DNA of 64,000 nucleotides from Candidatus Parcubacteria bacterium (GTDB lineage: Bacteria > Patescibacteriota > Patescibacteriia > Patescibacteriales > UBA12075), in assembly GCA_002869165.1 (NCBI GenBank), contig PKTK01000001.1:446005-510004 (forward strand), in the 5' to 3' direction. Every line of letters begins with the position of its first letter. Position 1 is the first letter of the stretch. The notes under the pieces are model-generated. The model did not search any database and was not told where the DNA came from. It was given only the letters and a program-made list of their open reading frames with translations. The translations under genes and the position numbers were made by a program. This document shows, piece by piece, positions 4,463-60,480 of the stretch.

Positions 4463-4705
4463 TACTTTCTCCTTTTAGATTAAAATTATAAAAAATATTC
4501 AAAACAACATTTTTATTATCCAAATTTTTAAATAGAAATAAAACAATTTTCAAAAGGACAATAAATTAAAATATCACAATCATCGCATTTCGTCAAGTTA
4601 ATGTAGCTCTGCACCATTTAGTGTGGTGCAAAAGTCTATTTGAGTCTATAAGTTATTGGCTAAAATAGGCTTTCTCAAAAAAGATATTTTAAAAATAAAA
4701 ATAGT

Positions 4706-4895
4706 TGTCATTCCCGGCCGGAGCCTTATGAGCGGAGCGAATAAGCGCAGGGGAAGGGAATCTAGGGATCAAAGCTACAAATATTAACAAATAAAACAAA
4801 TATAATTAACTTTTTTTGCTGTTTTTATTTTGAATTGATATTATTACGGATCTCCCCTGGATTCCCTTCCCTCGCTATCGCTCGCCGGGAATGAG
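4706..4895. repeat. GTCAT-hairpin element, long form
   Basis: Left arm tgtcattcccggccgg...ggggaagggaatc, right arm ggattcccttccctcgc...cgccgggaatgag, AT-rich ~85-bp spacer. Confidence 0.8.
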
Positions 4896-5060
4896 AAAAG
4901 AGAATGCTGTCAGTGAATTAGTTAACATCCACAAGAATAACAAAAAATGCCACGCTAAATATTATAGAGTTGTTAATGTACTATTAAGGTACATAGGTAA
5001 CACTTTATAATATTTAAATAATTAGAAAGGCGGCATTACTTCTAATTTAAAAATAAAAAA

Positions 5061-10003: not shown

Positions 10004-10040
10004 AAAACAGGCGCTTATTTTAAGATCGCCTGTTTTTTGT
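10004..10040. terminator. bidirectional rho-independent terminator
   Basis: aaaacaggcg-13 nt-cgcctgtttt with T-runs on both strands; closes the promoter-defined plus transcript and the minus zinc-ribbon ORF. Confidence 0.7.
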
Positions 10041-10041
10041 T

Positions 10042-10173
10042 TTAATTTCTTTTTTGTCCTGCCCCACCGCAAACACAACAATCATTGTCTGATTTTCCCG
10101 TCCCCTTACAATGAGCACATTTGACAACTACCTTTTCTTATAATTTAAACTTAGGCATTTTATTGCTTGTCAT
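10042..10173 (-). CDS. small zinc-ribbon protein (CxxCxGxG x2) interrupted by in-frame TAA
   Basis: SD aggaag 7 nt before ATG 10173; MTSNKMPKFKL[TAA 10138-10140]EKVVVKCAHCKGTGKSDNDCCVCGGAGQKRN; the zinc-finger part has no start codon of its own. Confidence 0.4.
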
Positions 10174-10669: not shown

Positions 10670-10742
10670 TGCGCCCACCAGGATTCGAACCTGGGACCTT
10701 CTCCTTAAAAGGGAGCTGCTCTACCAGCTGAGCTATAGGCGC
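10670..10742 (-). tRNA. tRNA-Lys (anticodon UUU)
   Basis: Manual cloverleaf: acceptor gcgccta/tgggcgc, D arm gctc-agctggta-gagc, anticodon loop cTTTTaa, T arm ccagg-ttcgaat-cctgg; no encoded CCA. Confidence 0.9.
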
Positions 10743-10765
10743 TTTAAATCTATGATATTTATTTT

Positions 10766-10797
10766 TGTCATTTCGTAGCGAAGCGGAGAAATCCCTT
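10766..10797. repeat. GTCAT-hairpin element, single arm
   Basis: tgtcATTTCgtagcgaagcggaGAAATccctt; internal 5-bp stem around GCGAAGC. Confidence 0.65.
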
Positions 10798-11008
10798 AAA
10801 CACTACAAAATCATAAAACAAAAAAACATCAAAAGTATTAAAATTTTATTTAATAATAGCTAAAATTAAAACAAACTGCCCTAACGGCAGAAGTTGCATT
10901 ATTAATATAACAAATAAATTAAATTTTGTAAAGAGTTTAAAAATAGTGGAAAAATAGTGGAAAAATAAGCTAATTCCAAGCTTGTCTTAAGCTAAAAACT
11001 CCTGTACT

Positions 11009-12406
11009 ATGAGTAATATGTCTAACCAAATATTAGAAAAATTACCACCCCAGAACCTAGAAGCTGAACAGCATTTTCTAGGCTCTATTTTGCTTGACAA
11101 GGATGCTATCATCAAAGTCGGTGACATGATCAGACCTGATGATTTTTATGACTCAAAACACAGGTTGCTTTATGAAATAATGATTGAATTATATTCAAAA
11201 CATGAACCAATTGATGTTGTTAGTATTAGTAATCTCTTAAAAGAAAAAAACAAGCTTGAACAAGTCGGTGGTAGAACTTATCTTGCCAAACTATCAAATG
11301 TTGCTATTACTCCTACTAGCATAGTTAACTATGCTCATATTATCCAAAAAAAGGCTACTCTGAGACGTCTACTAAAAGCTGCTTCAGAAATAACAGAACT
11401 AGGGCAAAAAGAAGATGAGGAAGTTGATGCACTACTAGACAACGCTTAAAGAAAACTTTTTTCCGTTTCTCATAATTACTTAAAAGAATCCTTTACCCCA
11501 GTTGACACACTTCTAAATGATGCCTTTGAAAGAATTGATGAATTACATAAAATGAGCGGAAAACTCAGGGGTATCCCAACTGGATTCGGTGATTTGGACA
11601 ATCTTCTAACAGGATTACAGAAATCTGACTTGATCATCCTGGCTGCTAGACCATCTGTAGGTAAAACATCGTTTGCCCTAGATATAGCCAGACAAGCAGC
11701 CGTAACACACAAAGCAGCTGTAGGAATATTTTCACTTGAAATGAGTAAGGAACAGCTAGTTGATCGTATGCTTTGCGCTCAATCAAATGTTAGTCTATGG
11801 AAAATGAGATCTGGTAAGCTATCTGACTCTGACGCCAATAATGACTTTGCCAAAATTGCTGAAGGTATGGGACATCTTTCTGAGGCACCTATATACATCG
11901 ACGACTCCCCTAACTGCTCAGTAATGGAGATTCGAACTAAAGCTAGGAGATTAAAGGCTGAAAAAAATCTTGATTTGCTAATAATTGACTACCTCCAACT
12001 CATGGAAGGTCGTGGTAAACATTCTGACAATCGTGTTCAAGAAGTAGCTGAAATTTCTAGTGGTCTCAAGGGTATTGCTCGTGAATTAAATATCCCAGTT
12101 ATTGCCCTCTCACAGCTTTCTCGTGCAGTTGAACAAACCAAACCAGCTATCCCAAAGCTTGCTCATCTTAGAGACTCTGGTTCTATTGAACAAGATGCTG
12201 ATGTAGTTATGTTTATTTATAGAAAATCCGCTGACAGGAACTACAACAAAGAAGAATTATCAGCCGAAGAAAAGAACGCTGGTGAAATCCATGTTGCCAA
12301 ACACAGAAATGGTCCAACCGGAAAAGTAAATCTATTCTTTGATGAAGTAACCGTTAGTTATAAAAACATGGCTAGAGTTGATTACCAAGAGCCACCTCAA
12401 CAATAA
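11009..12406 (+). CDS. dnaB: replicative DNA helicase DnaB, single in-frame TAA at 11447-11449
   Basis: ORFs 11009..11449 and 11552..12406 are in one frame; N-terminal domain (PPQNLEAEQHFLGSILLD), linker, Walker A ARPSVGKTSF, IDYLQLM, SQLSR; total 465 codons, as expected for DnaB. Confidence 0.9.
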
Positions 12407-12782: not shown

Positions 12783-12791
12783 TCCTGCCTT

Positions 12792-12903
12792 TGTCATCTC
12801 GCAGCGAAGCGGGGAGATCCCTTATACATTTTAATTTGTAATGGTGAAGCGATTTACCACAGGCACCTTGTCTCCAGTCGTTTCACTCCTTACGAAATGA
12901 CAA
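12792..12903. repeat. GTCAT-hairpin element
   Basis: Left arm tgtcATCTCgcagcgaagcgggGAGATccc, right arm ...cgtttcactccttacgaaatgacaa; abuts the recR 5' end. Confidence 0.8.
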
Positions 12904-18643: not shown

Positions 18644-18719
18644 GTGCCATTCAGAGCAATGCGAATAATCTCGTTTTTTCTATTATTTACAAGATGCTTC
18701 GTTTTGTTCAAGATGACAC
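18644..18719. repeat. GTCAT-hairpin element (degenerate termini)
   Basis: gtgccattcagagcaatgcgaataatctcg ... agatgcttcgttttgttcaagatgacac. Confidence 0.7.
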
Positions 18720-22990: not shown

Positions 22991-23068
22991 GTGTCATTCT
23001 AAAACGTTAGTGAATAATCCCGTTTCTTCTTCTTTCTACATGATATTTCACTGAGTTCAGAATGACAC
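22991..23068. repeat. GTCAT-hairpin element
   Basis: gtgtcattctaaaacgttagtgaataatccc ... atttcactgagttcagaatgacac. Confidence 0.75.
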
Positions 23069-25650: not shown

Positions 25651-27381
25651 CTAATATCCTTTTTTCTTTTTATAAGTTGTATGCAAGACACTATGTTCGT
25701 AGTGATGCCCCTTGGCCCTTAGCCAGTCTAATACTTTCTTCACTGCCATATTGTCGTGGGCTTTCCTAATCTTCCTGTCTTTATCGTGCTTGTATAATGC
25801 TTCTATTCTCTTTTTTCTTATCTCCCAGCTAGTGGGAATTGGTTGTCCACCTCCTCCAATACATCCACCCGGACAACTCATTACTTCAATATAATGATAA
25901 TCATCCAGTTTTTCTAAAACTTTTTTAATATTTCCAATACCGTTTACCACTGCAACATTATATTTATTGCCAGCTATTTATACTTCAGCTTCCTTTAAGC
26001 CATCTATGCCTCTTACGTCTTCAAATTCAAGCCTAGAGTCACAAAGTGAATCATCACTTCCCTGACAAGCCAAATATTGAGCAGTTCGCAAAGCTGATTC
26101 CATTACTCCTCCGCTAGCCCCATAAATTGCAGCTGCGCCACTATATTCGCCAAGAGGATTATCAGCTTGACTTGGATTAATCTTAGCTAGGTTAATCTCA
26201 TTTTTTTTAAGTAAAAAAGCTAGTTCCCTATTGGTCAAAACATAATCAACTGGCAAACTACCTTTAACCTTCATCTCTCCTCTACTCGCCTCATATTTTT
26301 TAGCTGTACAGGGCATCACTGACACTATCTCAATATCTTTGGGTTTTATGCCCATATTTTGCGCCCAATAAGTCTTGATAATACCCCCCATATGCATATT
26401 TGGAGAACGTGAAGTGGTAATATTCGGAATTAAATCGGGACGATATATTTCTACGTAATTCACCCAGGCAGGACAGCAAGAAGTCATCATAGGTAAGGGC
26501 TTTTTTTCGACAATACGTTCGATTAACTCGCCTGCTTCAACCATGGTGGTAACATCTGCTGCAAAATTAACATCAAATACATAGTCGAAACCGAGCTGTC
26601 TAAGAGATGAAACTATTCTATCTGTTGTTTCTTCACCAGGTTCCAAACCGAATTCTTCACCAATACTTACTCTGATCGAAGGGGCAAAAATGGCAACTTT
26701 TGTTTTTTTCTTTTTACTGATAAGTTTTTCAACATCAGCACAATTAAACTGCTCCTGTGCTGCGCTAACTGGACAATGAACAGCACACTGACCACACAAT
26801 ATACACTGAACTTTTGAATCCTTAACTGGTCTAACTTCTTGATTTTCTCCCTTGCCAGCTATTTCTAGATAGTTTATCCCTTGCATCGCACAAGCATCAA
26901 TGCAATTCCGACAATCAATACACTGTGTAGCATCAAGCTCAACAGCATTTGCAAATTTATATACCTTTCTGTCTCCTTTTCTATCTTCAAATCTATTTAT
27001 ATTTAAATTATATTCCTTAGCGTATTTAAGTAACGGGCAGTTAAAGCGCCATAAACAATCAGGGCACTTCTCAACATGGTCAGCGTAAATTAGTTCTAAA
27101 TTGGTTTTACGAGATTTTTGCACTCTATCGGTGTTTGTTTCGATTTCCATACCTTCCTCAACTTTTGTAGAACATGATGTTTGTAAATTTTTTCTATTTT
27201 TAACTTCTACCACACAAACCCGACAGTTTGCATGTGGTGGAAAATCATCATGCTGACAAAGAGTAGGGATGTCTATTCCTTTTTCTCTAGCAACCTGAAG
27301 AATAGTCATTCCTTCATCACAAGAGACTTGTTGGCCATTCAATTTAATTTTTATTTTCTTCCTTGGCATCTTTGCTGTCAT
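25651..27381 (-). CDS. hydA: [FeFe]-hydrogenase HydA (2Fe-2S + 4Fe-4S + H-cluster domains), single in-frame TAA at 25978-25980
   Basis: ORFs 25978..27381 and 25651..25950 are in one frame; TSCCPAW, MPCTAKKYE upstream and CPGGCIGGGGQP downstream of the TAA; total ~576 codons, as for clostridial HydA; real start may be MPRKK (27369). Confidence 0.9.
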
Positions 27382-27494
27382 TCTGGGGCTCCGGTGAAAC
27401 GGAGCGGAACCGGAGAACCCGGAGTCCAGAATCGTTAATTTATGGTGGATCCCGGGTCCTCTTCCACTTACGCTCCAGAGCCCCAGGATGACAA
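27376..27494. repeat. GTCAT-hairpin element
   Basis: tgtcattctggggctccggtgaaacggagcgg...ccagaatcg / gatcccgggtcc...cgctccagagccccaggatgacaa; its terminal ATGACA supplies the first ATG of the hydA track ORF. Confidence 0.8.
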
Positions 27495-30395: not shown

Positions 30396-30524
30396 AATAA
30401 TTTCTTAATAATTTTTATATTTATTTATCCACTATATTATACCATAAAACAATAAAATAACAAAAATACCAAGAAAAAAGGATGCAAGGCTAAGTAATTA
30501 AAAATTGAAAAATTTCATTTCTTC

Positions 30525-30688
30525 TGTCATTCTAAACGAAATGAAGAATCTTGTAGAAAGAGGAAAAAGCAGAATTCTTCGGCAAAGCCTTAATACTAAA
30601 CATAAGAAAAATAACCAAACATTATTTATTTATGTTTGGTTATTTCTATTTATATCTTGTAATTTGTTTGTATCTTTTATCCTTACGC
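30525..30688. repeat. composite intergenic repeat, copy 2 (hairpin element then terminator-like module)
   Basis: tgtcATTCTaaacgaaatgaAGAATc arm, degenerate partner, then AACCAAACA-n11-TGTTTGGTT (30613-30641) and tail gtaatttgtttgtatc. Confidence 0.7.
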
Positions 30689-31512: not shown

Positions 31513-31552
31513 ATATTTAAAGGGTTAAATTGTTATATTGTTTATAAAGTTT

Positions 31553-31658
31553 TGTCATCCTGGGGCTCGGAATGAAGTGAAGAGAACACGGGATCCAGTA
31601 TCATTCTATCACGTATAAGGGATTTCTTCAGTCGTTCCACTCCTTACGAAATGACAAG
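31553..31658. repeat. GTCAT-hairpin element
   Basis: tgtcatcctggggctcggaatgaagtgaagagaacacgggatcc ... gggatttcttcagtcgttccactccttacgaaatgacaag. Confidence 0.75.
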
Positions 31659-31722: not shown

Positions 31723-32523
31723 TTAAAGTGAGAATCTTACAAACTTTTCAATTTTAGCATCTCCGAGAACATCTTCAATTTTTTTCTTATCATCTTTGAT
31801 AAATTCTTGCTTTAGAAGACATACTTCAGAATAATATTTTTCAATTTTTCCTTTCAAAATATTTTCAATAATATTTTCTGGCTTACCTTCTTTTAGAAGT
31901 TGCTCTTTATATATTTCTTTTTCCTTGTCTGTTTCATCAGCTGGAACTTCACTAGGATCAATATATTTAGGACTTGAGGCAGCAATATGCATGGCAATGT
32001 CTTTAGCTAGTTCATTATCGATCTTTTTGTCAAATGATACTAAAACACCAATTTTACCACCCATATGAGAATAAGCAGCTACTGAACCATTTTCTGATTT
32101 TAGCATTTCTATCCCTTTAACGCCCATTTTTTCGCCAATTGTTCCACTTAGATTATCTAGGGTTTCTTGAGCTGTTCCTTCTGACATGGGTTCTGCCATT
32201 AACTCTTCAAGTGAAGCTGGTTTTTTACTTTTTAGAATTTAAAATAACTCTTTGGCATAAGCTTGAAATTTATCGTTTTTTACAACAAAATCAGTTTCAG
32301 CGTTTATTTCAAAAGCATAACCTTCGGTATTATCTTCATTTGTTTCAACTAACACAATACCTTCATTGGTTTCTCTTTCACCTCTTTTAGCTGCTTTTGC
32401 AATTCCTTTTTTACGTAGGATCTCTACTGCCTTTTCAATATCTCCGCCAGTCTCATCAAGAGCTTTTTTACATTCAACCATGCCTGCTCCTGTTTTTTCA
32501 CGAAGTAATTTAATTTTTTCCAT
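31723..32523 (-). CDS. tsf: elongation factor Ts, single in-frame TAA at 32239-32241
   Basis: ORFs 32239..32523 and 31723..32199 are in one frame; UBA-like N-terminus [24 protein letters not shown], then ...KPASLEEL...IGEK... and C-terminal module; downstream of rpsB. Confidence 0.9.
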
Positions 32524-32533
32524 AGAATTCGTA

Positions 32534-32662
32534 TGTCATTGCGAGCGACAGCGAAGCAATCTCGATTTTTTACAATGACTTTAAATATTATTTATTCATT
32601 ACGAAAAATTCAAGCGATATATTCATGAGATTGCCACGTCGCTTCGCTCCTCGCAATGACAA
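32534..32662. repeat. GTCAT-hairpin element (best-preserved copy), inside the rpsB-tsf intergenic region
   Basis: tgtcATTGCgagcgacagcgaaGCAATctc ... gagATTGCcacgtcgcttcgctcctcGCAATgacaa, ~70-bp AT-rich spacer. Confidence 0.85.
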
Positions 32663-33358: not shown

Positions 33359-33440
33359 ATTTTTTCCTTTGTTCTTCTATCTAGATTCACGCTAATTTTT
33401 AATTCTCTTATTTTAAGATTTAACATTTTTCTTAAAAATT

Positions 33441-33530
33441 TGTCATTTCGACCGAAGGGAGAAATCTATAATATTTAAATAGTAACACGTATTATAGATC
33501 TCTCCTCCATCCTGTCGTCGAGATGACAAG
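33441..33530. repeat. GTCAT-hairpin element in the rpsB upstream region
   Basis: tgtcATTTCgaccgaagggaGAAATc ... agatctctcctccatcctgtcgtcgagatgacaag. Confidence 0.75.
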
Positions 33531-33721: not shown

Positions 33722-34147
33722 TTATATTTCACAACAAATAAGTCTTGCTTGAATTCCACAATCAGTATCATTTATTGTATATAGCACGGTTCTTTCATCC
33801 TGCATATAGTCACCAACATAATCCTTATCCACCGTACAACCATGATATTCATACCCCTGTCTTCTTTTCATTGAATGACTTACTATAATCTCGTCTGCGT
33901 CACAGCTTAATGTCAAGTTTTTGTCAAATGTTAAGCCTTCAACTACACGACACTTGTTTGATATTCCTCCAAAATCATCATCTAGATTATTCCACATCGT
34001 CTGGGTAACAGTATCTCCAGCTGACATATTATAACTATTTAAATAAGCTAATACATATGCTCCAAAAGGAGAAAGAACAGCGGCCGAGATAATTAAAACA
34101 AACATAATAACAAATATGGCCGTCAATTTTATTTTAATATTTTTCAT
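33722..34147 (-). CDS. Cys-rich small membrane-anchored/secreted protein, paralog 3
   Basis: Shares AYLNSY...MWNNLDDDFGGIS..C..V.G....L.LSCDADE..V.HSM.R...C......DERTV......DCGIQA.L.CC with 34247..34663 and 34676..35089; likelier start MKNIKIK (34147). Confidence 0.7.
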   Translation of the reverse strand: MKNIKIKLTAIFVIMFVLIISAAVLSPFGAYVLAYLNSYNMSAGDTVTQTMWNNLDDDFGGISNKCRVVEGLTFDKNLTLSCDADEIIVSHSMKRRQGYEYHGCTVDKDYVGDYMQDERTVLYTINDTDCGIQARLICCEI

Positions 34148-34246
34148 ATTTTTTATTATTATAAAATTAAATAAACTTATAGGGTTCAAAACATTTTATC
34201 CCTAGTTTAAAGCTAAAATAAAACCTAGTTTCCAGCTGAAATTATT

Positions 34247-34663
34247 TCAGTCCAATTTACAACAAAGCAATGTTGCCTGAATGCCACAATCAGCATCATC
34301 CAGTCTAAAAAAAACAGTTCTTTCGTCTTGTATCTCATCACCAAAATAATGTTTCATTTCACAATTAGCACTCTCAGGAACCCTTCTCATAGAATGACTA
34401 ACAACAACTTCATCAGCAGCACAAGAAAGAGTCAAAGTTTCTGCATATTCTAAGCCTTCAACAATATGACAATCACTAGAGATTCCTCCAAAATCATCAT
34501 CTAGATTATTCCACATTTCTTCTGTCAATAAGTCCCCCTCTGCTTTTTCGTAACTATTTAGATATGCCAAAACATAAGACCCAAAAGGCAAAAGAACGGC
34601 AACGGAAACAATCAAAACAAATATGATTACAAATGATGTAGTTAGAAATTTTAAATTTTTCAT
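34247..34663 (-). CDS. Cys-rich small membrane-anchored/secreted protein, paralog 2
   Basis: Same architecture: N-terminal hydrophobic helix, six conserved Cys, C-terminal CGIQATLLCC. Confidence 0.7.
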   Translation of the reverse strand: MKNLKFLTTSFVIIFVLIVSVAVLLPFGSYVLAYLNSYEKAEGDLLTEEMWNNLDDDFGGISSDCHIVEGLEYAETLTLSCAADEVVVSHSMRRVPESANCEMKHYFGDEIQDERTVFFRLDDADCGIQATLLCCKLD

Positions 34664-34675
34664 ATTTTTTATATT

Positions 34676-35089
34676 TTAAATATCACAACAAATTAACTTT
34701 GCACGAATTCCACAATTTACATCCTCTATGCTAAACCAAACTGTTCTTTCATCTCGTACACTATCTCCAACATATGCTCTTATATCACAGCCAGAATCAT
34801 TTCTCCTTATCATTGAGTGGTTAATAACCGTCTCATCTGCATCACAAGAAAGAGTCATTTCTTGCGCATATGTTTCACCTGAAACCACACGACAATCGCC
34901 ACTAATTTTACCAAAGTCATCATCAAGGTTATTCCACATCTCTACAGATAATAAATCTCCAGACGACTTTTCGTAGCTATTTAAATAAGCCATAACATAA
35001 GATCCAAAAGGCGACAAAACAGCAACGGAAACGACAAAAACAAACACAGTAACAAACGAAATAGCTAATGTTGATTTATAGTTTTTCAT
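34676..35089 (-). CDS. Cys-rich small membrane-anchored/secreted protein, paralog 1
   Basis: Same architecture; C-terminal CGIRAKLICCDI. Confidence 0.7.
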   Translation of the reverse strand: MKNYKSTLAISFVTVFVFVVSVAVLSPFGSYVMAYLNSYEKSSGDLLSVEMWNNLDDDFGKISGDCRVVSGETYAQEMTLSCDADETVINHSMIRRNDSGCDIRAYVGDSVRDERTVWFSIEDVNCGIRAKLICCDI

Positions 35090-39821: not shown

Positions 39822-39868
39822 TGTCATTATCTGCGAGCCGCCAACTGGCAGGTTGCCGGGAGTGATAC
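39822..39868. repeat. GTCAT-hairpin-family element, short divergent copy
   Basis: tgtcattatctgcgagccgccaactggcaggttgccgggagtgataca. Confidence 0.5.
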
Positions 39869-41454: not shown

Positions 41455-41534
41455 GTGTCATTCTAAACGTAAGTGAAGAATCACATGGCTCAATAATTTT
41501 AAACCGGGATTATTCGCTCCGCTCAGAATGACAC
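41455..41534. repeat. GTCAT-hairpin element
   Basis: gtgtcATTCTaaacgtaagtgaAGAATcac ... ggattattcgctccgctcagaatgacac. Confidence 0.8.
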
Positions 41535-49366: not shown

Positions 49367-49490
49367 ATTATTTTCTTTGCTACCATTATAATAAACAAAT
49401 ATTAATAGTAAATTATTTTCTGTAAAAAAATCACTGAATACTGAAACACACAGCACGAACCATTGTTTACAAATAAAAATTATACCCATT

Positions 49491-49519
49491 TGTCATTCCT
49501 GCGAAAACAGGAATGACAA
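49491..49519. repeat. minimal GTCAT hairpin
   Basis: tgtcATTCCTGcgaaaaCAGGAATgacaa. Confidence 0.7.
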
Positions 49520-49674
49520 AAAAAGTAAGAAATATTATAAGGTGGTGATAATACTATTCTAATTTATATCAAAGGGATAATTATATTCATCATGAATAAC
49601 AAAAATGAAATTAGGAATCACAAAAAATACTAAAATATAAAATTAAAATACACCATACAAAACTTTTATTCAAA

Positions 49675-56403: not shown

Positions 56404-56566
56404 AGAAGCTACTGGCTATAATTACTTTGATTAAATCACTTTTAAATTTTGAGGAAATTTTTTTGAAATTTTTTTTAGCAATATGGATATATTGGTCAAA
56501 AAAATTTAATAAAAATTTACCGAAATTTAAAATGATTTTGCAATGAAATTATAGCCAGTAGCTTCT
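56404..56566 (-). other. insertion 2 in rnpB: 20-bp perfect stem with a 123-nt AT-rich loop
   Basis: agaagctactggctataatt (56404-56423) pairs with aattatagccagtagcttct (56547-56566); sits immediately 5' of the conserved ACAGAAUCCGG. Confidence 0.8.
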
Positions 56567-56665
56567 ATGTATAGTTATTTATCTAGGCCTACTGTTACCA
56601 GTAAGCTCATGCGAACTACTTATAACCAGAGCGAAGTTCTGCAAACTCCAAACTAAATACTGTTT

Positions 56666-56762
56666 TGTCATCTCGTAGCGAAGCGGAGAGATCTCTTAAA
56701 TGCAAATAGCTTCACGTCTAAGGGATTTCTCCATTCGCTCTCGCTCCTTGCGAAATGACAAG
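56666..56762. repeat. GTCAT-hairpin element inserted inside rnpB
   Basis: tgtcATCTCgtagcgaagcggaGAGATctc ... gggatttctccattcgctctcgctccttgcgaaatgacaag, at the tip of the helix formed by ccagaacgaagttct/agaacttcgctctgg and aaatact/agtattt. Confidence 0.85.
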
Positions 56763-57070
56763 AGTATTTTTTAGAATTTCTAGAACTTCGTTCTGGCTTT
56801 GTTCTTGCTCCAGGTAGGGTTTACCACGAACATGCTGTCACCAGCAGTCGAAATTAGTAGCCATTTGTCTCGAGAACAAATAACACCTAAAAACTTTTCA
56901 CCTTTTATCTCGACATATGTCGAAACTAGTATAGTCTCTGCGGCACTTTCCCTAGGGTTTCCCCCGGTGGATGTTATCCACTACCCATAACCAGAGCGAA
57001 GCTCTGGCTGGAGTCCGGACTTTCCTCCCCGTTTTAATTTTGAAACGAGGCAACTATATATCTGCCTTGA

Positions 57071-58830: not shown

Positions 58831-58838
58831 TTTTCGCT

Positions 58839-59017
58839 TGTCATTCTGAATGAAGTAAAAAATCCCAAGAACGTCGCAATAAATTATAATATTCTTCTCC
58901 GCAAGCTAACAGATTAGAATGACAAGTGGAAGAACTTTGTTCATGATGGCTGTCACCTGTGGTGACCTGCCTATCCCCACGTCCAAGGGATTCTTCGCTT
59001 ACGCTCAGAATGACAAC
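58839..59017. repeat. two adjacent GTCAT-hairpin elements
   Basis: tgtcattctgaatgaagtaaaaaatccc...ttagaatgacaag (58839-58926), then ...gggattcttcgcttacgctcagaatgacaac (to 59017). Confidence 0.75.
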
Positions 59018-60264: not shown

Positions 60265-60480
60265 AAATAACCAAACAATATTTAATGTTTGGTTATTTTT
60301 TATTTCTAATTTGTTTGTTTCTTATATCCTTGTATCTTTCAAATCCCAACGAAGTCAAAAAATATCATAGTTAATCCCAATATTCTCGAGATTCTTCGCT
60401 TCCGCTCAGAATGACACTAAGGAGAAGTATTCTTAATTCTTAATTCTTAATTCTTAATTCTTAATTCTTAATTCTTAATT
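60265..60480. repeat. composite intergenic repeat, copy 3 with (TTCTTAA)7
   Basis: AACCAAACA-n8-TGTTTGGTT + T-run (60269-60300), tail ctaatttgtttgtttc, right arm gagattcttcgcttccgctcagaatgacac (60388-60417), seven TTCTTAA units + TT (60430-60480). Confidence 0.85.

Follow-up and report, generated by a model that had tools for sequence, protein, structure and literature searches.

The window analysed here, a 64-kb stretch of DNA from a Patescibacteria genome, carries a family of short hairpin-forming repeats, one of which (32533-32662, TGTCATTGCGAGCGACAGCGAAGCAATCTCG ... GAGATTGCCACGTCGCTTCGCTCCTCGCAATGACA) occupies the whole spacer between tsf and rpsB. About 27 repeat arms, spread over 18 loci, follow the same plan: a (T)TGTCAT head, a stem of variable sequence whose two complementary strands enclose a purine-rich loop, and finally ATC-YC. 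The commonest arrangement is a head-outward inverted pair of arms forming an element of 58-193 bp, and the 18 accepted loci comprise 14 head-outward pairs or clusters, three single arms and one two-headed single palindrome. They are given below, with strands for individual arms, together with one doubtful candidate (39822-39868).

669-757, arm pair; right arm (725-757, minus) strong, left end made of two degenerate TGTCAT head stubs
1397-1439, minus, single long-loop arm with an ATTCCC/GGGAAT stem; 6 nt separate its end from the prfA (RF-1) start
4705-4897, long pair of long-loop arms with ATTCCC stems; weak model scores
5061-5118, compact pair with degenerate heads of the GTGTTAC...GTAACAC type; a DUF3048 gene lies 35 nt upstream
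10765-10798, plus, single arm TTGTCATTTCGTAGCGAAGCGGAGAAATCCC; adjoins tRNA-Lys
12791-12903, hetero-pair of a short-loop ATCTC arm and a long-loop ATTTC arm; ybaB-recR interval
18644-18719, pair of the GTG(C/T)CAT type; flanked by uppS and the gene of an mgsA-like ATPase
22991-23068, pair; occupies the 99-nt spacer from a NUDIX gene to the CCA-adding enzyme gene
27375-27494, pair of arms with long GC-rich loops; the longest hydA ORF takes its ATG from a head
30524-30600, pair; gap-PSP1 interval, left arm strong, right arm degenerate
31552-31658, hetero-pair; interval between the PSP1 gene and tsf
32533-32662, pair whose two arms each have an ATTGC/GCAAT stem and GCGAAGC; tsf-rpsB spacer
33440-33530, hetero-pair with ATTTC and ATCTC stems; rpsB upstream region
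39822-39868, TGTCAT head with a GC-rich hairpin; membership doubtful
41455-41534, pair of the GTGTCAT type with ATTCT stems; interval from a CAP-domain gene to a sortase gene
49490-49520, perfect 29-nt palindrome TGTCATTCCTGCGAAAACAGGAATGACA, one hairpin with two heads; marginal family member
56665-56762, hetero-pair; inside rnpB (56537-57069, minus strand), where it lies in the apical P15-P17 part of the RNase P RNA
58838-59017, three-arm cluster (58838-58869, plus; 58885-58925 and 58984-59016, minus); flanking genes divergent
60385-60417, minus, single arm GTGTCATTCTGAGCGGAAGCGAAGAATCTCGAG with the top model score; flanking genes convergent

Census and anatomy of the arms

A covariance model was built from 24 arms and the whole window was scanned with it unfiltered, yielding 23 arms at E<0.005 plus another 4-6 with weaker scores. 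All the model arms fall within the roughly 20 loci listed in an earlier note made from the sequence alone, and the scan of the whole window added none; two entries of that list fared less well, 39822-39868, which gave no match to the arm model, and 49491-49519, whose palindrome scored at E about 6-10. Weak scores were also obtained for the long-loop arms of 27376-27494 and 4706-4895 (E 0.3-3) and for the left arm of 669-757. Several arms are near-consensus (40 bits) and many others are degenerate. The earlier note was right to see a single family of non-autonomous, REP/MITE-like hairpins, whose unit is the arm and whose usual pairing is head-outward, and all the stems that it named (ATTGC/GCAAT, ATTTC/GAAAT, ATCTC/GAGAT, ATTCT/AGAAT and ATTCCC/GGGAAT) were found. 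Altogether the elements amount to 1,631 bp, which makes up 2.5% of the window sequence and 14% of the non-coding DNA in it, and 16 of the 47 intergenic gaps of at least 30 nt hold one.

The flanking genes are co-directional at 12 of the 18 loci, and the elements often lie 10-50 nt from both ORFs. We could confirm the placements reported before, in the rpsB-tsf spacer, in the rpsB upstream region and in rnpB, as well as the element (12791-12903) that ends about 5 nt ahead of the recR N-terminal coding sequence and the hydA ORF that starts on the ATGACA of an arm. These positions matter for annotation, because the repeats yield spurious start codons and ORFs (e.g. the MT... start of hydA) and enlarge structured RNAs such as rnpB. 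Peptide strings that correspond to translated arms turn up in called proteins. Separately, some genes are split, but an alternative genetic code was rejected as the cause. Their in-frame stops are TAA codons, at least two of which are GAA in further assemblies of this genome.

Conservation is concentrated at precise positions of the arm. The 24 window arms all have A6 and the same closing A and T. Conservation reaches at least 90% at each of G3, T4, C5, T7 and the C that follows the stem, with T7 forming a T-A pair in 23 of the 24; G3 T4 C5 are preceded by T or G, and the head reads (T/G)TGTC. When unique arms from all sources are taken together (n=93), A6, A26, T27 and C28 are invariant, pair 6-27 is A-T in 93/93 and pair 7-26 is T-A in 92/93, G.A occurs at 11/22 in 91/93 and A.G at 12/21 in 85/93, and the inner pairs 13-20 and 14-19 covary. 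The canonical arm consists of five Watson-Crick pairs, two G.A pairs and two further Watson-Crick pairs, topped by a loop of 3-4 nt and followed by a C-Y-C tail; about one third of the window arms have loops of 17-22 nt. Under a nearest-neighbour model, which leaves out the extra stability of sheared G.A pairs and GNA loops, single arms fold weakly (-2.4 to -5 kcal/mol, with a non-significant z).

A GNA loop closed by G-C and C-G is present in 62 of the 93 unique arms, and the N of GCGNAGC is free (A 30, G 27, C 22, T 14 in the 93 arms). The general core is GA-GCGNAGC-GA, of which GCGAAGC is one instance and, in the window, the minority form. GCGAAGC is enriched there (7 observed versus 2.0 +/- 1.45 expected); however, the statement that the loop usually contains it was too strong, since the exact motif is found in 5 of 27 arms and GCGN(1-2)AGC in 11. 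According to Hirao and co-workers, d(GCGAAGC) and d(GCGNAGC) reportedly form extra-stable DNA mini-hairpins. The same motif caps the canonical arm, where it is just the tip of a longer hairpin and its N is free.

Stem covariation and DNA-level pairing

The window alignment has 90.8% of its cells paired and contains 23 double-change cells versus 8.3 +/- 3.1 in shuffles, none of which (0/500) reaches the observed value; controls with slid partners gave 0-5. Two stem positions were left free in the patterns used to scan viral and metagenome collections, which avoids ascertainment bias. At these free positions, the viral scan returned 92 T-A and 59 C-G pairs with 0 wobble and 0 mismatch (Fisher 2e-43), and the metagenome scan 57 T-A and 29 C-G pairs, again with 0 wobble and 0 mismatch; pooled, this makes 237 Watson-Crick pairs without a single wobble or mismatch. 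The stem covariation is genuine, and the lack of G.T is consistent with DNA rather than RNA pairing. The covariation invoked earlier thus stands as an excess over chance, but it largely reflects differences among old sub-families common to many organisms and not compensatory change inside this genome. One exact 27-nt variant of the window occurs in 80 unrelated metagenome contigs; this 27-mer was tried as an organism-specific arm variant and discarded as cosmopolitan in the metagenome collection, where it retrieved no contig of the source sample.

A known repeat superfamily and its probable Ssn-like partner

The anatomy of the arms places them in a known family, the published features of the CGTC repeats and of the NTS/SsnA determinants agreeing closely with it. 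Di Nocera, De Gregorio & Rocco (2013, BMC Genomics 14:522; PMC3733652) described a superfamily of CGTC-tagged REPs which is defined by a (C/T)GTC head, an AT-opening stem, a short tail and head-to-head dimers, and includes dRS3 of Neisseria and RPE-4 and RPE-6 of Rickettsia. Their repeats have a stem of 8-9 positions, a loop of 4-5 nt and a short unpaired tail with the consensus CCA; the terminal CGTC is often replaced by TGTC, dimers have 20-100-bp spacers and are frequently heterodimers, and the repeats sit chiefly between co-directional or convergent genes, near ORF ends (PMC3733652). The window arms have CGTC/TGTC-type heads and AT-opening stems and are arranged head-to-head in intergenic, transposase-free positions, and CGTCAT and TGTCAT arms adjoin in two related contigs (L268 and L295). 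The repeats are real, but because their head, stem opening and dimers have all been published we consider the family as already described and very widespread, and not as a new kind of element; what is new is a sequence class, and the occurrence of a member of a known superfamily in a CPR host. As to whether the elements might belong to an annotated repeat or RNA family, a point raised in the earlier note, the answer is yes for the described superfamily and no for Rfam: scanning the window against Rfam returned only rnpB and two tRNAs at gathering score, with no family for the repeats, and merely generic miRNA-precursor hairpin noise at E up to 10. Full-text literature searches with the arm sequence and its translated peptides gave nothing or unrelated primers.

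Chenal et al. (2025, Nat Commun 16:2388; PMC11893778) described the Neisseria NTS and Ssn-related motifs (SRM) together with SsnA, a 94-aa GIY-YIG endonuclease that cuts only ssDNA, a few nt 5' of the head. In SsnA recognition the C after the palindrome determines binding and the three bases before it determine cleavage (PMC11893778); the enzyme is inactive when the palindrome sequence is altered, even though the hairpin is kept, and does not bind RNA (Chenal et al. 2025). In Neisseria, Ssn limits transformation by NTS-bearing DNA. The published SRM pattern, HGTCWYN(0-2)YYVSBRHN(0-5)WNVSBRGN(0-2)RNCYNB, has 0 matches on both strands of the window, which means that the class with G.A stems escaped that definition.

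Genes for such nucleases lie next to arms of this class in other genomes. Ssn-like genes flanked by it were found in seven loci (L202, L235, L268, L293, L295, L298 and L300), in two of which (L298 and L300) the ORF is enclosed by a single head-outward arm pair, and 12 of 14 distinct Ssn-like genes have an arm at most 100 nt away. Six single-domain PF01541 ORFs, 5-720 nt away from arms, are present on the metagenome contigs retrieved by the arm variant of the window. In the Patescibacteria MAG GCA_041662345.1, ssn lies between arms ending ...AAATCCCTTATAC, which are window-like; full elements border a 94-aa GIY-YIG gene on both sides in a Planktothrix plasmid, and viral homologues (L206-L209) have the flanking elements TGTCATCCCGG...CCGGGATGACA. 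The adjacent proteins are single-domain PF01541 proteins of 94-112 aa, with a full-length identity of 43-49% to the 94-aa SsnA ortholog of Neisseria gonorrhoeae, or 32-49% when the lower value of the 112-aa copy (L235) is included; the gonococcal protein itself is embedded among 16 canonical NTS copies. The partner suggested in the earlier note, a RAYT or IS200/IS605-type transposase, is not supported, the genes flanked by arms being small and GIY-YIG (Ssn-like). Genes encoding 79-aa GIY-YIG proteins beside tRNAs in two CPR relatives (L167 and L186) were not counted as partners because they have neither the C-terminal segment of Ssn, W-x-R-x-x-K-x-x-L-I-E-x-x-N-P-x-W-x-D-L, nor flanking TGTCAT arms.

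No ssn or GIY-YIG coding potential was detected in any frame of the window, nor in the adjoining sequence, 8.5 kb on one side and 4.8 kb on the other. Presumably, a cognate Ssn is encoded in this genome or was in the past, and Ssn would be the agent that spreads the elements. At least five stem variants coexist in the window and, given the strictness of SsnA towards its palindrome, this would require an enzyme that tolerates them, more than one enzyme, or a majority of dead copies.

Probable mobility and proposed origin of the elements

Across 18 relatives the rpsB-tsf spacer measures 3-246 nt and contains an element of the same family in one only (L125). The arms are sparse in relatives (24 in 881 kb, from 80 relatives' loci) compared with about 27 in the 64-kb window, and another locus (L068) has five tandem copies. 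Arms occur on more than 120 IMG/VR viral contigs, and ssn homologues on some viral ones; the gene families enriched in 120 viral loci are phage structural only, and partly linked through arm translations. An autonomous copy was sought between arms 350-3,350 bp apart, which enclose a phage portal gene, RF-1 and the like and no transposase, and the Pfam scan likewise bore out the earlier statement that the window has no transposase (none among 61 ORFs). At the level of sequence comparison, the filled and empty orthologous spacers, the tandem arrays, the presence of ssn within an arm pair and the DNA-type covariation support mobility. The tandem head stubs that lie outside some heads may be footprints of insertion.

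Spread by a REP-associated Y1 (HUH) transposase, as in a REPIN/RAYT system, is very improbable. Hairpins of 30 nt with a conserved 5' tag, found as inverted intergenic doublets and with no transposase nearby, do have the look of REPINs, and on one JGI contig a Y1_Tnp gene is located about 1.8 kb from an ssn-like gene. Nevertheless, the heads of the window are (C/T)GTC, whereas the RAYT subclasses that have REPs show GT[AG]G heads throughout (PMC6006769), and CGTC repeats were searched for beside Y1 transposase genes and never seen flanking them (PMC3733652). Moreover, about 2.5 Mb of element-bearing loci gave one Y1-like ORF, unflanked and 1.5 kb from an arm, and Y1_Tnp was absent from the 61 scanned window ORFs. 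We give as little credit to classical MITEs, i.e. deletion derivatives of a DDE-transposase IS whose terminal inverted repeats would be the arms and which would have moved as double-stranded DNA. Inverted head-outward arms around a variable internal spacer, present or absent at orthologous sites, are what MITEs would produce, but a direct target-site duplication was not seen at any complete copy, each arm is a hairpin of its own that covaries independently and often differs in stem from its partner, and single arms exist; in addition, distant arm pairs hold no transposase, and the sole gene seen within an arm pair is that of a GIY-YIG nuclease.

It is also unlikely that the elements are kept mainly as RNA structures in operon transcripts, acting in processing, stability or termination, with mobility being incidental. 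The 12 of 18 loci between co-directional genes and the long hairpins into which whole elements fold (z = -4.3 and -5.8) would suit such a role, and RNA-level effects of REPs are known; yet no G.U-type pair occurs in the 237 free stem cells, the sense strand is more stable than the antisense in only 5 of 12 dimers, the elements are not followed by a U-tract, the same 27-mers recur in hosts of 28-67% GC and in phage contigs in unrelated contexts, and SsnA does not bind RNA. Quite unlikely, finally, is that the copies are relics or depend on help in trans, the genome having no ssn of its own and owing its elements to past spread or to Ssn from a phage or another mobile element. The roughly 77 kb of this genome in which ssn was not found, the numerous degenerate arms and the viral contigs with arms or ssn homologues agree with this idea, but 77 kb is just about 8% of a genome of about 1 Mb, several arms remain near-consensus, and an ssn homologue is common in SRM-rich genomes (Chenal et al. 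2025).

We thus favour, with a probability of roughly 0.7, the view that these are CGTC/TGTC-tagged REP-type repeats of the Neisseria NTS/dRS3/SRM kind, whose pairs are non-autonomous derivatives of an arm-ssn-arm unit. The unit would be one arm of about 30 nt that folds on single-stranded DNA into a hairpin of five Watson-Crick pairs (A-T and T-A first), two sheared G.A pairs and a GCGNAGC top, flanked by a conserved (T)GTC on the 5' side and directly by a conserved C on the 3' side, the positions that SsnA reads in its NTS. Two head-outward arms would make the 58-193-bp element, and we read the pairs of the window as short derivatives because ssn is enclosed by such pairs in other genomes. 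Copies would insert into intergenic spacers and a peripheral loop of rnpB, where they may be tolerated because they fold on themselves. Since on any one strand only one arm of a pair is oriented for cleavage, a simple excision model does not follow. It is tempting to speculate further, although we hold this narrower version to be doubtful, that the arm pairs are MITE-like derivatives of a mobile arm-ssn-arm unit of about 370-500 bp with a GIY-YIG nuclease of about 95 aa as its sole protein, carried by phages, active in streamlined CPR genomes and common to phyla of 28-70% GC. If true, this would define a class of ssDNA-based mobile elements driven by a GIY-YIG and not by an HUH or DDE enzyme.

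What spreads the CGTC-type REPs has been a standing question since 2013, and the Ssn work of 2025 showed a nuclease partner but not mobility. Judged from the genomic comparisons, our data support mobility and point to Ssn as the resident gene of a full-length unit. They also extend the range of the family to the Patescibacteria, where it takes up 14% of scarce non-coding DNA, and the class with G.A stems points to Ssn enzymes with new ssDNA specificities, which is where the practical interest of the enzyme family lies.

Compared by description with the CGTC superfamily, the canonical window arms seem to be alike in their nine stem positions, short loop and short unpaired C-rich tail. The window arms differ in the two conserved G.A mismatches and the GNA triloop of their stems, in the 17-22-nt loops of many arms, in the lack of insertions inside protein-coding genes of the window (one copy lies in rnpB) and in their host, a Falkowbacteria-like member of the Patescibacteria, whereas the reported hosts are Proteobacteria, Chlorobi, Bacteroidetes, Spirochaetes and Thermotogae (PMC3733652). 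With REPINs and RAYTs (Bertels & Rainey 2011; Nunvar 2010; Ton-Hoang 2012) they share 5'-tagged hairpins in inverted pairs, a single-copy gene for an ssDNA-cleaving enzyme between its own repeats and a long intergenic persistence, but the tag is (C/T)GTC instead of GT[AG]G and the enzyme GIY-YIG instead of HUH/Y1. With the NTS/SRM they share the layout YGTCAT - palindrome - ATC - YNG. Outside the stem, the window arms are most conserved at the 3 nt that precede the palindrome, which in the NTS determine cleavage by SsnA, and at the C that follows it, which determines binding. The palindrome of the window is AT-rich with internal G.A pairs, unlike the TCCCGCG/CGCGGGA of the NTS, but the repeat-ssn-repeat architecture of the NTS-Ssn system recurs with this very arm class in other genomes.

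Anatomy and census of the arms

The element at 32534-32662 consists of TGTCATTGCGAGCGACAGCGAAGCAATCTCG, a 64-nt AT-rich spacer and GAGATTGCCACGTCGCTTCGCTCCTCGCAATGACA, as read directly from the sequence. An earlier note, made by eye, had described a family of hairpin repeats at some 20 loci; once extracted, all of these loci formed a single family in which the arm is the repeated unit. An arm opens with a (T/G)TGTCAT head and three bases that vary; after a loop rich in purines, typically GAGCG(N)AGCGAAG, come the bases complementary to these three, then AT and C-Y-C. A covariance model with 24 arms as input, run over the whole window with filters off, returned 23 arms at E<0.005 and 4-6 weaker ones, with no arm outside the loci already listed. 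The family is thus real, and 18 loci were accepted; the model did not recognize 39822-39868, whose membership is doubtful and which is left out of the following counts. Head-outward pairs or clusters of 58-193 bp occupy 14 of the 18 loci, three carry a single arm and one a lone two-headed palindrome. Altogether the elements cover 1,631 bp (2.5% of the window, 14% of its non-coding DNA) and lie in 16 of the 47 intergenic gaps of at least 30 nt, between co-directional genes at 12 of the 18 loci and often only 10-50 nt from both ORFs. Pfam scans of the 61 window ORFs revealed no transposase, and the description of the elements as REP-like, non-autonomous, structured repeats stands.

The canonical arm was defined from all sources together (93 unique arms): G.A occupies positions 11/22 in 91 and A.G positions 12/21 in 85, the inner pairs 13-20 (G-C or A-T) and 14-19 (C-G, G-C or T-A) covary, and the loop is G-N-A in 62. 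The stem therefore has nine positions, with five Watson-Crick, two sheared-type G.A and two further Watson-Crick pairs capped by a GNA loop. GCGAAGC, which had been taken for the usual loop, is one instance of the core GA-GCGNAGC-GA and is found exactly in only 5 of 27 window arms.

Some heads have short tandem "head stubs" immediately outside them, truncated heads of the ...CTCAGAATGACA type that recur at intervals of 12-26 nt; such stubs occur in the window, in Planktothrix, on one viral contig and beside copies of the Neisseria repeat NTS, and may be footprints left by events at the cleavage site. A tandem array of seven heptamers (ATTCTTA; 60430-60480; eight copies in the ENA assembly) lies 12 nt outward of the head of the single arm at 60385-60417.

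Marginal arm and head stubs
Window, 49491-49519: 29-nt palindrome with two heads, marginal family member
Window, 669-705: head stubs
L202 (Planktothrix plasmid), 10026-10100 and 10670-10715: head stubs
L059 (viral contig), 985-1050: head stubs
L291, 1400-1470: head stubs

The presence of elements in the rpsB-tsf spacer and inside rnpB was borne out. The bacterial class A RNase P RNA (56537-57069, minus strand; 157 bits, Rfam) is 533 nt long against a model of 367 positions; its Rfam alignment places the element towards the apex of the P15-P17 region, where it folds as an independent hairpin lengthening a terminal helix, and the ENA assembly has the same insert. The RNA also contains another small additional hairpin, CCAGAGC-UUCG-CUCUGG, near P5/P7 (56990-57010); it is the source of one plus-strand GCGAAGC match and is not a family arm.

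Covariation and the level of constraint

In the window alignment 90.8% of stem cells are paired, and 23 show double changes versus 8.3 +/- 3.1 after shuffling (0 of 500 shuffles) and 0-5 when the partner column is slid. Because part of the window arms had been chosen for having a stem, an unbiased test was sought in two collection scans whose patterns allowed any Y at one stem position and, independently of it, any R at the partner. The viral-contig scan (151 matches) gave 92 T-A, 59 C-G and no T.G or C.A (Fisher 2e-43, a type of p-value that copies sharing descent inflate), and the metagenome-contig scan (86 matches) gave 57 T-A, 29 C-G and neither mismatch type. Both paired states are scattered over many unrelated contigs. 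Covariation thus exceeds chance, as proposed.

A 27-nt arm variant occurring three times in the window had been expected to be organism-specific, yet it matched 80 metagenome contigs from soil, activated sludge, marine and other sources (28-67% G+C). The stem variants are therefore old sub-families common to many organisms rather than compensatory changes that arose locally.

A rival reading is that the elements are kept mainly as RNA structures. Whole elements form long hairpins (z = -4.3 and -5.8), and nearest-neighbour energies of single arms are weak, the parameters giving no credit to G.A pairs or GNA loops. Yet wobble pairs are entirely absent from the 237 free stem cells, the sense strand is no better a folder than the antisense (5 of 12 dimers) and the elements match no Rfam family, so that a function in RNA finds no support as the main constraint; operon transcripts may be affected secondarily.

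Host and distribution of the family

The window DNA is also found in contigs of JGI metagenome 3300007102 and in ENA assembly ERZ794999 (on NODE_4, 500,921 bp); its G+C content is about 33%, and its ribosomal protein S2 is closest (<=76% identity) to proteins of MAGs that bear the label Candidatus Falkowbacteria, Parcubacteria or Patescibacteria. The housekeeping genes tsf (32239-32241), dnaB (11447-11449) and hydA (25978-25980) are each interrupted by an in-frame TAA. Those of tsf and dnaB read GAA in ENA or JGI assemblies of the same genome, and 22 of 24 single-base differences are C:G in the assembly versus A:T in the window, a signature of oxidative damage or sequencing error; a recoded stop was rejected. 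Other genes of the window include three tandem paralogues at 33722-35089 (155, 138 and 137 aa) with an N-terminal hydrophobic segment, conserved Cys residues and no Pfam match, adjoining the gene for a Gly-rich 563-aa protein, and a lone small "23S rRNA intervening sequence protein"/four-helix-bundle gene (PF05635; 28960-29319) between nuoF-like and gap, a kind also found among the elements of the Planktothrix plasmid (L202 15587-15946).

The pattern TGTCATYCTGAGCG-N(1-3)-AGCGAAGRATC matched more than 120 IMG/VR viral contigs, with 32-70% G+C and a modal element length of 70-80 bp among the matches listed; on one contig, five copies stand in a tandem array that repeats every 87 bp. PLSDB plasmids of Planktothrix, Gloeothece, Hymenobacter and Phocaeicola also matched the element. 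Among relatives, 80 loci (881 kb) hold only 24 arms, 12 of them in one Parcubacteria MAG. The rpsB-tsf spacer, with its 129-bp element in the window, measures 3-246 nt in 18 relatives (shortest 3, 10, 15 and 18 nt), and only one of these, L125, carries a family element, a different 72-nt copy; several others have unrelated palindromes at the same site. The site is orthologous and thus shows presence/absence polymorphism.

The unrelated palindromic or repeat insertions are those of L123, L124, L129, L133 (for example CAACCCCGTCCCGCCATGGCGGGACAGGGTCAA) and L137, and it seems that hairpin repeats of various kinds settle in this spacer in these CPR genomes. On the Planktothrix plasmid, complete elements lie inside an annotated 4.7-kb MmeI-type restriction-modification CDS (L202 12001-12162 and 13658-13851), which would be either an intragenic insertion, as in Rickettsia RPEs, or a mis-annotated split gene. 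In a relative (L196 1359-2591) the called RF-1 ORF opens with MYPVSVIPAQAGIQ...LDSRLRGNDRKK, which is a GC-rich arm pair (GTCATTCCCGC...GCGGGAATC type) of this superfamily read as protein; such repeats can thus yield false N-terminal extensions.

Ssn-type nuclease genes and known repeat families

A RAYT had been suggested as the partner, but about 2.5 Mb of element-bearing loci contain one Y1-transposase-like ORF, unflanked, and the arms instead flank GIY-YIG genes. The Planktothrix agardhii plasmid NZ_LR882964.1 encodes a 94-aa "GIY-YIG nuclease family protein" with full elements on both sides (TTGTCATCCTGAATGTAGCGAAGCGAAATGAAGGATCTC on one, GAGATTCTTCGTTTCACTCAGAATGACA on the other), and elements in a GC-rich version, TGTCATCCCGG...CCGGGATGACA, flank four homologues on viral contigs. 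The 80 metagenome contigs with the window's variant hold six single-domain PF01541 ORFs (97-112 aa) 5-720 nt from arms, one of them with named homologues from Patescibacteria, Moranbacteria, Absconditicoccaceae, Margulisbacteria and Ignavibacteria. In Patescibacteria MAG GCA_041662345.1 the flanking arms end ...GAAATCCCTTATAC, with the inner junction of window 12791 and 31616, and in contigs L298 (31% G+C) and L300 one head-outward arm pair encloses the ORF, which directly adjoins one of the arms and is 20 nt away from the other. Overall, an arm lies no more than 100 nt away from 12 of the 14 distinct Ssn-like genes examined. Their proteins (all but a 112-aa copy) show full-length identities of 43-49% to a 94-aa protein of Neisseria gonorrhoeae that is encoded amid 16 canonical NTS copies in 3.3 kb, and they have in common with it a C-terminal W-R-x-K-x-x-LIE-x-NP-W-DL segment. 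Judged from these sequences, the partner of the family appears to be an Ssn-type GIY-YIG nuclease, not a RAYT. No GIY-YIG coding potential was found in any window frame or in the flanking DNA, covered for 8.5 kb on one side and 4.8 kb on the other; we infer that the organism encodes, or once encoded, a cognate Ssn.

The two enzyme types were seen together only on a JGI 3300072015 contig, where about 1.8 kb separate an ssn-like gene and a Y1_Tnp gene (PF01797). Shorter GIY-YIG genes (79 aa) adjoin tRNA genes in CPR relatives (L167 5843-6335, L186 1690-2200); in L167, a GC-rich double hairpin (GGTTCTGCGCCAAAGGCGCACTCGCCTCCGGCGAGGAATCC) in direct copies, together with a duplicated tRNA 3' end, borders the gene and its tRNA, which suggests a different small mobile unit.

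CGTC-tagged REPs, which include Neisseria dRS3 and Rickettsia RPE-4 and RPE-6, are mostly head-to-head dimers, frequently heterodimers, and the genes on either side of them are co-directional or convergent (Di Nocera et al. 2013, PMC3733652). In Neisseria the longer repeat, NTS (CGTCATTCCCGCGMAVGCGGGAATCYRG), is a substrate of the 94-aa GIY-YIG protein SsnA, which binds and cuts it only as ssDNA, and ssn homologues in many bacteria are flanked by "Ssn-related motifs" (SRM; Chenal et al. 2025, PMC11893778). The published SRM pattern has no match in the window, so the linkage of this arm class to Ssn had to be shown directly. The elements belong to the already known CGTC/TGTC-type REP/SRM family; they are a new member of it, found at high density in a CPR host, and a sequence class that the published search pattern does not capture. 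Only one arm per pair is in the cleavable orientation on a given strand. Since SsnA reads sequence as well as shape (PMC11893778), the coexistence of at least five stem variants in the window would call for either a tolerant enzyme or several of them, unless many copies are inactive. SsnA depends for binding above all on the C that directly follows the palindrome, and for cleavage on the three bases before it (PMC11893778); these are exactly the most conserved non-stem positions of the window arms.
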